From NCBI GenBank assembly GCA_963677745.1, contig OY782391.1:640001-704000 (forward strand): DNA of 64,000 nucleotides, written 5' to 3'. Below are positions 55,901-55,975 of this stretch, one piece after another. The stretch is from Candidatus Altimarinota bacterium (GTDB lineage Bacteria; Patescibacteriota; Gracilibacteria; UBA1369). The stretch's first letter is position 1. The number at the start of each line of letters is the position of its first letter. A model generated the notes under the pieces. It was not told the DNA's origin and made no database searches. It saw nothing but the letters and a program-made list of their open reading frames with translations. The position numbers were made by a program, and so were the translations under genes.

Positions 55901-55975
55901 TGGTGGACCCCAGAAGTTATTCACTCCTGAACGCGACGCTTGCGCAAAGCGTCTAGCGCAGAACGCTAAAGGCCC
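55901..55975 (-). ncRNA. Non-canonical tRNA-like RNA with alanine identity and encoded CCA
   Basis: GGGCCTT TA GCG-TTCTG-CGC TA GACGC-TTTGCGCAA-GCGTC GCGTTC AGGAG-TGAATAA-CTTCT GGGGTCC A CCA: 75-nt cloverleaf, 7/5 acceptor/T stems, G3.U70, A73. Confidence 0.7.

Follow-up and report, generated by a model that had tools for sequence, protein, structure and literature searches.

A conserved RNA gene of tRNA-Ala type, apparently non-decoding, in one family of Candidatus Peregrinibacteria

What is encoded by 75 nucleotides (nt) that end like a tRNA for alanine and yet lack the loops of one? The question is raised by positions 55901..55975, minus strand, of a 64,000-nt stretch of the genome of a Candidatus Altimarinota bacterium (assembly GCA_963677745.1, contig OY782391.1, positions 640,001 to 704,000), which is called here the window. 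An earlier note, made from the letters of the window, had proposed that this place hides a tRNA-like RNA with non-canonical loops, an acceptor end of the alanine type and a promoter of its own. We find that a real RNA gene of this type is indeed present. The G3.U pair and the encoded ACCA of its acceptor end are invariant in 11 of 11 homologous sequences. Our analysis suggests that these sequences form a family of tRNA-derived, non-decoding RNAs that is apparently undescribed.

The homologues were found next to a small gene that usually follows the element and encodes a GGQ protein (RF-1 domain). Taking as orthologue the best match at E <= 1.1e-19, this gene is present in 34 of the 41 genomes searched, the genome of the window (G000) being included in both numbers. 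The DNA upstream of 30 orthologues contains the same RNA in seven further loci, in a shorter form of 63-65 nt. We built a covariance model, R1, on eight element sequences. It matches the window copy with 76.5 bits (E 8e-15) and gives matches of 50.9-87.3 bits in 11 of the 36 genomes of one Candidatus Peregrinibacteria/Peribacteria family, amounting to 12 copies. The 11 distinct sequences come from 11 species-level genomes, whose GGQ proteins are 44-72% identical to that of the window. Only the window copy has 75 nt; the ten others, among them two from the same genus (G001 and G002), have 63-67 nt. The remaining matches of R1 in the family score about 31-35 bits and have the length of a tRNA (76-77 nt). 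They include the tRNA-Ala(UGC) and tRNA-Ala(GGC) genes of the window genome, at about 32 bits.

The distribution of the element is narrow. R1 has no match at E<=1e-5 in 128 genomes from the 18 other families of the order, and none in 150 other genomes from the rest of the class. A scan of a collection of 185,579 species with an exact pattern returned 12 stretches, 11 of which are in the same 10 other Peregrinibacteria-type genomes; a match in Limnohabitans was discarded as a chance occurrence in a GC-rich sequence with a different fold. In metagenomes, a loose pattern returned at least 120 stretches, and 80 loci were scored with R1. Among the matches listed, 3 of the 80 were accepted at E<=0.01 and no new diversity appeared, locus L090 being identical to the copy of G001. 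Two metagenomic candidates were rejected: L083 (28.9 bits, 77 nt) resembles an ordinary tRNA, and L116 (25.6 bits, 51 nt), which is devoid of hairpin 3, was dropped before the covariation count. In genome G010 the element and the GGQ gene behind it occur twice, with identical element copies, on the short contigs C57 and C122 (loci L035 and L047), which may reflect strain variation or a duplicate made in the assembly and not a true duplication.

Folded singly, the 11 distinct sequences all adopt one junction, made of a 6-base-pair (bp) acceptor helix, hairpins 1 and 2, a hairpin 3 of 6-8 bp placed under the acceptor, and a terminal ACCA. We counted covariation on an alignment of the 11 sequences (A3; 23 pairs, 252 cells) that had been fitted to the model. 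Standard pairs occupy 98.8% of the 252 cells, against a mean of 91.1% in shuffled alignments, and none of 500 shuffles reaches this value. Double-sided changes affect 8 of the 23 pairs and 19 cells, where the shuffled means are 2.9 and 4.4, and again neither number is reached in 500 shuffles. When the 3' partners are slid by 1-3 columns, the pairing falls to 32.5-53.6%. Because the single-sequence folds agree and the slid controls lose pairing, these results argue that the structure is real. Homologues with conserved pairing, to which the earlier note had looked, are thus found in the 11 family genomes, and compensatory changes hold the pairing. Even the most diverged copy, that of G023, has its helices preserved by such changes. 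In all four helices the pairs adjacent to the junction are invariant, and it is the distal pairs of the hairpins that vary.

In the window, the minus strand 55975..55901 reads GGGCC...GGUCCACCA. The 5' strand of the acceptor helix (nt 1-6, GGGCCU, 55970..55975) includes G3 of the G3.U pair and is invariant in the 11 distinct sequences. The 3' strand (nt 66-71, GGGUCC), followed by the discriminator A72 and the encoded CCA (together 55901..55910), is invariant except at column 69, where G becomes A in G023 and the pair with U6 is kept (U6.G becomes U6-A). The successive pairs are G1-C, G2-C, G3.U, C4-G, C5-G and U6.G, so that the AlaRS identity set, G3.U70 and A73, is present together with the CCA in 11 of 11 sequences without any change. 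Hairpin 1 (nt 8-22, 55954..55968) takes the position of the D arm and has 6 bp and a loop UCU in the fold of the window RNA. Across the family its loops are U-rich, always without GG, and 2 of the 5 modelled pairs have double changes. Hairpin 2 (nt 23-46, 55930..55953; double changes in 3 of 5 pairs) stands where a tRNA has its anticodon arm. Hairpin 3 (nt 47-65, 55911..55929; double changes in 3 of 7 pairs) stands in the position of the T arm, with 7 bp and a 5-nt loop GAAUA that has no UUCRA motif. The loops of hairpin 3 in the family are GAAUA, CUAAA, UUAUA and similar, and none is a T loop of the type UUCRANY.

Is the element then a tRNA? The earlier note had described a complete cloverleaf ending in ACCA, and this picture holds in part. 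Folded alone, the 75-nt RNA gives a four-way junction of -33.0 kcal/mol (z = -3.41), which none of 200 dinucleotide shuffles equals, and in which the 6-bp acceptor is stacked on the 7-bp hairpin 3. The acceptor pairs from G1-C to U6.G, the A and the CCA are as the note had them. The exact cloverleaf, with its 7-bp acceptor, 5-bp T stem with a 7-nt loop and 9-nt anticodon loop, has to be given up: it reaches -21.6 kcal/mol against -33.0 kcal/mol for the best fold, and the pair U7.G65 has a probability of 0.006, against 0.99 for the competing pair C47-G65.

The alanine anticodon UGC, which the same note had placed in the 9-nt loop, does not survive the comparison with homologues. The arm that displays it arises from an insertion of about 11 nt in this species, and this insertion is missing from all ten homologues. 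In the two other genomes of the genus, G001 and G002, hairpin 2 is GACGC-UUU-GCGUU, inside which the window copy has its 11 or so extra bases. The ten other copies have 4-7 bp in this hairpin and a loop of 3-4 nt, which in other genera is twice the tetraloop GCAA. Hairpin 2 of the window copy has two near-isoenergetic folds, a 7-bp stem with a 5-nt loop UGCGC (-33.0) and the ancestral stem with a GCAA-capped extension (-32.4 kcal/mol), and neither of them gives a 7-nt anticodon loop.

Programs that search for tRNAs give a similar picture. Over the window, ARAGORN in its default mode and Rfam at gathering scores call only the transfer-messenger RNA (tmRNA), and leave the 75-nt RNA uncalled. At E<=10, a search of Rfam over 55600-56300 (701 bases) returned three noise matches and no tRNA. 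However, the metazoan-mitochondrial mode of ARAGORN calls the exact 75 nt, with the anticodon GCG (Arg) instead of UGC. The expectation that tRNA finders may miss this RNA is thus borne out, with that mode as the only one that calls it. The family as a whole is called neither by Rfam nor by ARAGORN, whose default mode finds no element copy in 10 loci that hold one. Because the folds of hairpin 2, the homologues and the GCG reading of ARAGORN reveal no conserved anticodon, the window RNA is predicted not to be a decoder.

The same comparisons indicate where the RNA comes from. Its first 11 nt are identical to those of the tRNA-Ala(GGC) of the same genome, the 5' strand of hairpin 3, CAGGAG(U), is common to the T stem of tRNA-Ala, and global alignment gives the RNA a score of 72-75 with the three tRNA-Ala genes but of 34 with the joined tmRNA ends. 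Given these shared stretches and scores, the RNA appears to derive from tRNA-Ala and not from tmRNA. The ordinary tRNA set is kept beside it: the genome, a single contig of 1.34 Mb with 47% G+C, has 47 ordinary tRNA genes, including tRNA-Ala(UGC), (GGC) and (CGC). In the course of this putative descent the D and T loops would have been replaced and the anticodon arm reduced to a short hairpin, and the alanine-type acceptor end would have been kept. Random decay from tRNA-Ala, which the earlier note named among the outcomes that would refute its proposal, is not what we observe, as the differences make up a conserved new architecture.

The promoter of the proposal was also located, 10 nt upstream of the RNA. 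It is of the sigma-70 type, TTGAAA-16 nt-TAGGAT with TG before the second hexamer (55986..56013, minus strand), has 9 of 12 matches to the consensus, and leaves 10 nt between the end of its second hexamer and G1. As proposed, its layout is similar to that of the ssrA promoter of the window (TTTACA-17-TAGAGT, 9 nt to G1). The arrangement TTGAAA/TAnGAT is found upstream of the element in G002, G024, G003 and G001 as well, and the copy of G023 is preceded by TTGAAT-16-TAGAAT. Base -1 of the element is a U in 9 of the 11 copies. The window genome encodes the CCA in 47 of its 47 tRNA genes, as it does in the element, and has genes for a type-A RNase P RNA, SmpB, one AlaRS (an open frame of 656 amino acids) and a member of the CCA-adding-enzyme family. 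The longest open reading frame at this place, 55529..56020 on the minus strand (163 amino acids from a GTG at 56020), crosses both the promoter and the RNA gene. It is an over-extension, the conserved protein beginning at the ATG at 55885, and gene callers that choose the longest frame would hide the RNA gene.

That protein is encoded at 55529..55885 on the minus strand, with its ATG 15 nt after the ACCA, and is a GGQ-type (RF-1 domain) peptidyl-tRNA hydrolase of 118 amino acids. PF00472 covers residues 20-106 (1.6e-15), and the GGQ and a K/R-rich tail are visible in the translation. A stand-alone RF-1 domain without codon-recognition domain and with a basic C-terminal tail is what defines the ArfB/mtRF-R group. 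Among solved structures, human C12orf65/mtRF-R (7a5h_C) is the closest, at E 4e-13 and with an alignment that reaches the basic tail, ahead of RF1, RF2 and PrfH. There is no ArfB chain among the 34 PDB matches at E<=0.001, and the NCBIfam ArfB equivalog NF006718 gives 20.4 bits for a cut-off of 100. In the available part of their paper, Burroughs and Aravind group C12orf65 with "classical ArfB" and report a pseudouridine synthase as the sole conserved neighbour of arfB (PMC6514570).

The ACCA is separated from the GGQ start codon by 14 to about 55 nt in 8 of the 11 genomes. Because this leaves no room for a separate promoter, the element and the GGQ gene are most likely co-transcribed. In the ten genomes with enough flanking sequence, the locus is one syntenic slot, consisting of a cupredoxin/SLH-like gene, variable genes, the element, the GGQ gene, two genes on the opposite strand and a sigma factor. 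In 8 of 10 loci a tmRNA gene precedes the element by 1-6 kb; in the window it is called by ARAGORN and Rfam at 61797..62237 (minus strand), 5.8 kb upstream. Three genomes depart from this order. The GGQ gene is missing from the slot in G004, where the element begins 6 nt after the upstream stop codon and faces a convergent gene; in G018 an opposite-strand gene of 656 amino acids separates the two; and in G023, where a good promoter (TTGAAT-16-TAGAAT) is present, the place of the GGQ gene and of the two genes next to it is taken by an ATPase-like gene of 893 amino acids. As the element is intact in all three, its retention argues for a function that would not depend on the GGQ mRNA.

A few other features of these loci deserve mention. 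The protein encoded upstream of the element in the window (56010-56603, minus strand; 197 amino acids) has no Pfam or NCBIfam match, and in G018, G023 and G010 (L039, L041, L047) its place directly upstream of the element is taken by an open reading frame of 91-98 amino acids with no assigned family. For the tmRNA of G023 (L206:8874-9315), ARAGORN gives the tag peptide DVDEICRTDLVAFG with the coding part at 250, where the other seven tmRNAs have A-rich tags ending in A; the resume codon may have been mis-called. In the unprocessed transcript of the window, a pairing across the GGQ start codon is possible between the 3' acceptor strand extended by CC (GGUCCACC) and GGAUGGACU (minus strand, 55878-55909 in all). 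The best fold of the extended transcript (-49.1 kcal/mol) uses this pairing and not the acceptor helix, which is lost in 3 of 7 extended-transcript folds. We rejected a conserved switch that sequesters the start codon, because genera whose protein starts otherwise than with MD do not conserve the pairing.

What could such an RNA do? The roles listed in the earlier note, a non-ribosomal alanine donor, an adaptor for quality control or a regulatory mimic of tRNA, still stand as the candidates, and the comparison of genomes narrows them only slightly. AlaRS identity resides in G3.U70, and minihelices and tmRNA are charged by this enzyme. From the conservation, the structure, the tRNA-Ala descent, the promoter motif, the synteny and the retention without the GGQ gene, we infer that the element could be a processed, alanine-charged, non-decoding carrier RNA. 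This is the reading that we favour, and we hold it tentatively. Transcription would start from the element's own sigma-70-type promoter, with a leader of a few nt, and would usually run on into the GGQ gene. RNase P would cut at G1 and 3' trimming would halt at the encoded ACCA, so that a stable RNA (63-75 nt) would be set free and the GGQ mRNA left almost without a leader. AlaRS, reading the acceptor helix only, would then charge the RNA with alanine which, as there is no anticodon loop with which to decode, would be carried to a reaction outside normal decoding. The consumer might be cell-wall transferases of the FemAB type, or ribosome rescue with the co-transcribed mtRF-R-like GGQ protein, and these two are not separable here.

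Both candidate consumers have some basis in the genomes. The window genome has two FemAB-family genes above the Pfam cut-off (G000:C1:826804-827889 and 1171636-1172649), one of which belongs to an operon that also encodes a Mur ligase. This envelope operon (G000:C1:1166800-1176374, L208) encodes an alpha/beta hydrolase, the Mur ligase (554 amino acids), a DegT-type aminotransferase, the FemAB paralogue (337 amino acids), two proteins without Pfam match, an FtsA-like protein and a protein of 605 amino acids without Pfam match. Orthologues of this paralogue (53-74% identity) are present in 13 of the 36 family genomes, including 10 of the 11 that hold the element, a co-occurrence that probably reflects one clade and one event. 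The neighbourhood of the element has no fem gene. In the available part of PMC2655667, the FemX of Weissella accepts acceptor-arm helices charged with alanine, with G2-C71 as the main determinant; the element has G2-C71.

The second consumer, ribosome rescue, draws its support from the probable co-transcription with the GGQ gene and from the nearby ssrA, and leads to a more specific idea. The human protein mtRF-R acts with MTRES1 on split large ribosomal subunits that bear a peptidyl-tRNA. Shut out of decoding on the 70S ribosome by its lack of an anticodon, an alanine-charged mini-tRNA would be, on a split 50S subunit of this kind, an A-site substrate independent of any anticodon, and the mtRF-R-like GGQ protein would release the product, the two genes forming a module for alanine tailing and release that needs no RqcH. 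We regard this as a long shot. RqcH (NFACT_N) is above cut-off in none of the 36 family genomes, its weak matches being proteins of about 280 and 128 amino acids.

Several points weigh against an alanine-charged carrier. Among the sequencing runs listed for the locus, none is an RNA run. The family is small, the alignment on which covariation was counted had been adjusted to the model, and kinship between sequences may suffice to outscore shuffles where no structure exists. The alanine charging is read from the sequence, where the entire acceptor helix is frozen, so that an unchanging G3.U says no more than the unchanging pairs around it. The conservation of ACCA does not by itself demonstrate charging either, because RCCA is also read by bacterial RNase P. 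Since the T-loop and D-loop motifs are absent from the family, the tRNA elbow, which is used by RNase P, by some AlaRS domains and in EF-Tu-dependent steps, may not form. The links to the consumers are not strong, and kinship confounds both of them. FemAB is found in 35 of the 36 family genomes, with or without the element, which led us to reject its presence as a discriminator at the family level; the operon paralogue also occurs in G014, G043 and G017, none of which has the element, and no orthologue turned up in the element holder G010. The 34 genomes with the small GGQ gene are mostly devoid of the element, and a complementarity with RqcH was rejected, the absence of RqcH above cut-off in all 36 genomes leaving no complementary pattern. 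Concerning the elbow, the only AlaRS gene of the window genome (G000:C1:1071653-1073020, plus strand) is the open frame of 656 amino acids mentioned above, and bacterial AlaRS has typically roughly 870. The enzyme may thus lack the C-terminal domain that contacts the elbow, which would fit substrates without one.

The element could instead act in cis, as a tRNA-like leader of the GGQ mRNA that serves its 5' processing, stability or translation control without being charged or having a role of its own. It could be removed by RNase P and 3' trimming, or shield the 5' end, and in this way set the level of the GGQ protein. We consider this unlikely, while giving it serious weight. The short distance to the GGQ start codon in 8 of the 11 genomes, with no room for a second promoter, speaks for it, as does the start-codon pairing that competes with the acceptor helix in the extended window transcript, and recognition by RNase P could by itself account for the conserved acceptor helix and RCCA. 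However, only those 8 genomes fit the expectation that a leader always lies on the same strand as, and ahead of, the gene that it regulates. In G004 and G018 the element has no same-strand gene behind it and in G023 a different one, with the element intact in all three, and the start-codon pairing is restricted to the genera with MD-beginning proteins. Moreover, 23 of the 34 relatives with the GGQ gene have no strong element match in the searches run, and a hairpin for stability needs no frozen acceptor sequence of the alanine type.

The persistence of the element without its usual neighbour is in line with a stable, uncharged mimic of tRNA that would act as a regulator or decoy, as do pseudo-tRNAs and the tRNA-like domains of other small RNAs, by binding a protein that reads acceptors (AlaRS, RNase P, EF-Tu, the GGQ factor or an acceptor-targeting toxin). 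Junction pairs that are invariant in four helices, with distal pairs that covary, are what a specific protein-binding core would show, and a pseudo-tRNA of Bacillus cereus that is not engaged in translation alters cell-wall and antibiotic phenotypes, according to the available part of PMC3399842. We nevertheless find this rather doubtful, as none of our results links a candidate partner to the element, and a full AlaRS identity set with an encoded CCA exceeds what a decoy would need for most of these partners. Finally, a clear descent from tRNA-Ala and the failure of tRNA detectors are also expected of a functionless remnant, be it a decaying tRNA-Ala pseudogene or the scar of an integration in a tRNA gene. 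This is scarcely credible for an architecture that, once remodelled, was kept across genera whose GGQ proteins share only 44-72% identity with that of the window, its three hairpins being held by compensatory changes, its acceptor invariant and its promoter conserved. In addition, at the GGQ loci of 22 relatives without the element, there is no ordinary tRNA in the syntenic slot.

The window genome encodes a second odd tRNA, outside the window (G000:C1:1106861-1106931, minus strand; L209:501-571). It has 71 nt, with G1-C, G2-C, G3.U70, A73 and CCA, a normal T arm, a 3-bp D stem and UGA in the anticodon loop. ARAGORN calls it tRNA-Ser(tga), for which it is far too short by bacterial standards. 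Its full-length matches (83-92% identity) are restricted to the same genus, one in G001 and three in G002 (two of them within about 3 kb), to which a partial match in G002 is added. The anticodon stem varies, and UGA is kept in the three other copies that were fully extracted (one of G001, two of G002). This RNA could be a reader of Ser codons charged with alanine, or another non-decoding carrier.

The full-text literature on tRNA-like RNAs of Peregrinibacteria, Patescibacteria or the Candidate Phyla Radiation (CPR) returned no earlier description of an RNA like the element, and, in the literature on tRNA-like RNAs and ArfB, the titles and opening lines of abstracts of the matches listed mention none. 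CPR bacteria have very reduced genomes and few RNAs have been described in them. The element is a concrete example of how conserved genes derived from tRNAs are overlooked by standard tRNA and Rfam scans.

How does the element compare with known systems? With canonical tRNA-Ala it shares, in sequence, the acceptor, the discriminator and the CCA, but it has no 7-nt anticodon loop, no UUCRANY T loop and no GG in the D loop, and is not recognized by the standard models. RNAs of the mascRNA type are also small, cloverleaf-like and non-decoding, and are freed from longer transcripts by tRNA-processing enzymes. They form a eukaryotic nuclear system in which the CCA is added after transcription, whereas the element has an encoded CCA and a conserved alanine identity set. 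A closer parallel may be found in Staphylococcus aureus, where, in the available part of PMC7826273, lineage-specific, non-proteogenic tRNA-Gly with altered D and T arms are kept off EF-Tu and the ribosome and serve as amino acid donors in cell-wall synthesis. Like them, the element is a lineage-specific tRNA derivative with altered D and T arms; unlike it, these Fem donors are full-length tRNAs with an anticodon loop. The tRNA-Other of B. cereus, as presented in the available part of PMC3399842, is likewise derived from a tRNA and has a cellular role and none in translation. It keeps the form of a tRNA and flanks a genomic island, whereas the element lacks the anticodon loop and occupies a conserved chromosomal slot.

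The most informative comparison is with tmRNA (SsrA), which, in the available parts of PMC3929946 and PMC3985003, is non-decoding, charged by AlaRS and matured by RNase P. Both RNAs have an alanine-type acceptor with G3.U and CCA and no anticodon, and the element even lies near ssrA and a gene for a rescue factor. However, it has no mRNA-like part, no tag frame, no pseudoknots and no canonical T loop, it measures 63-75 nt against 441 nt, and the tmRNA model RF00023 matches only the true ssrA of the window and not the element. tmRNA illustrates that the acceptor end of tRNA-Ala can be reused outside decoding, since AlaRS ignores the anticodon. If our favoured reading of an alanine-charged carrier is true, the element would add to tmRNA another case of such reuse, which evolved independently and in a much smaller RNA, one of as little as 63 nt that has kept the part read by AlaRS and dropped the parts read by the ribosome. 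If charged, it would mark a transfer of alanine kept deliberately off the decoding ribosome in CPR bacteria, to the cell wall or to ribosome quality control.

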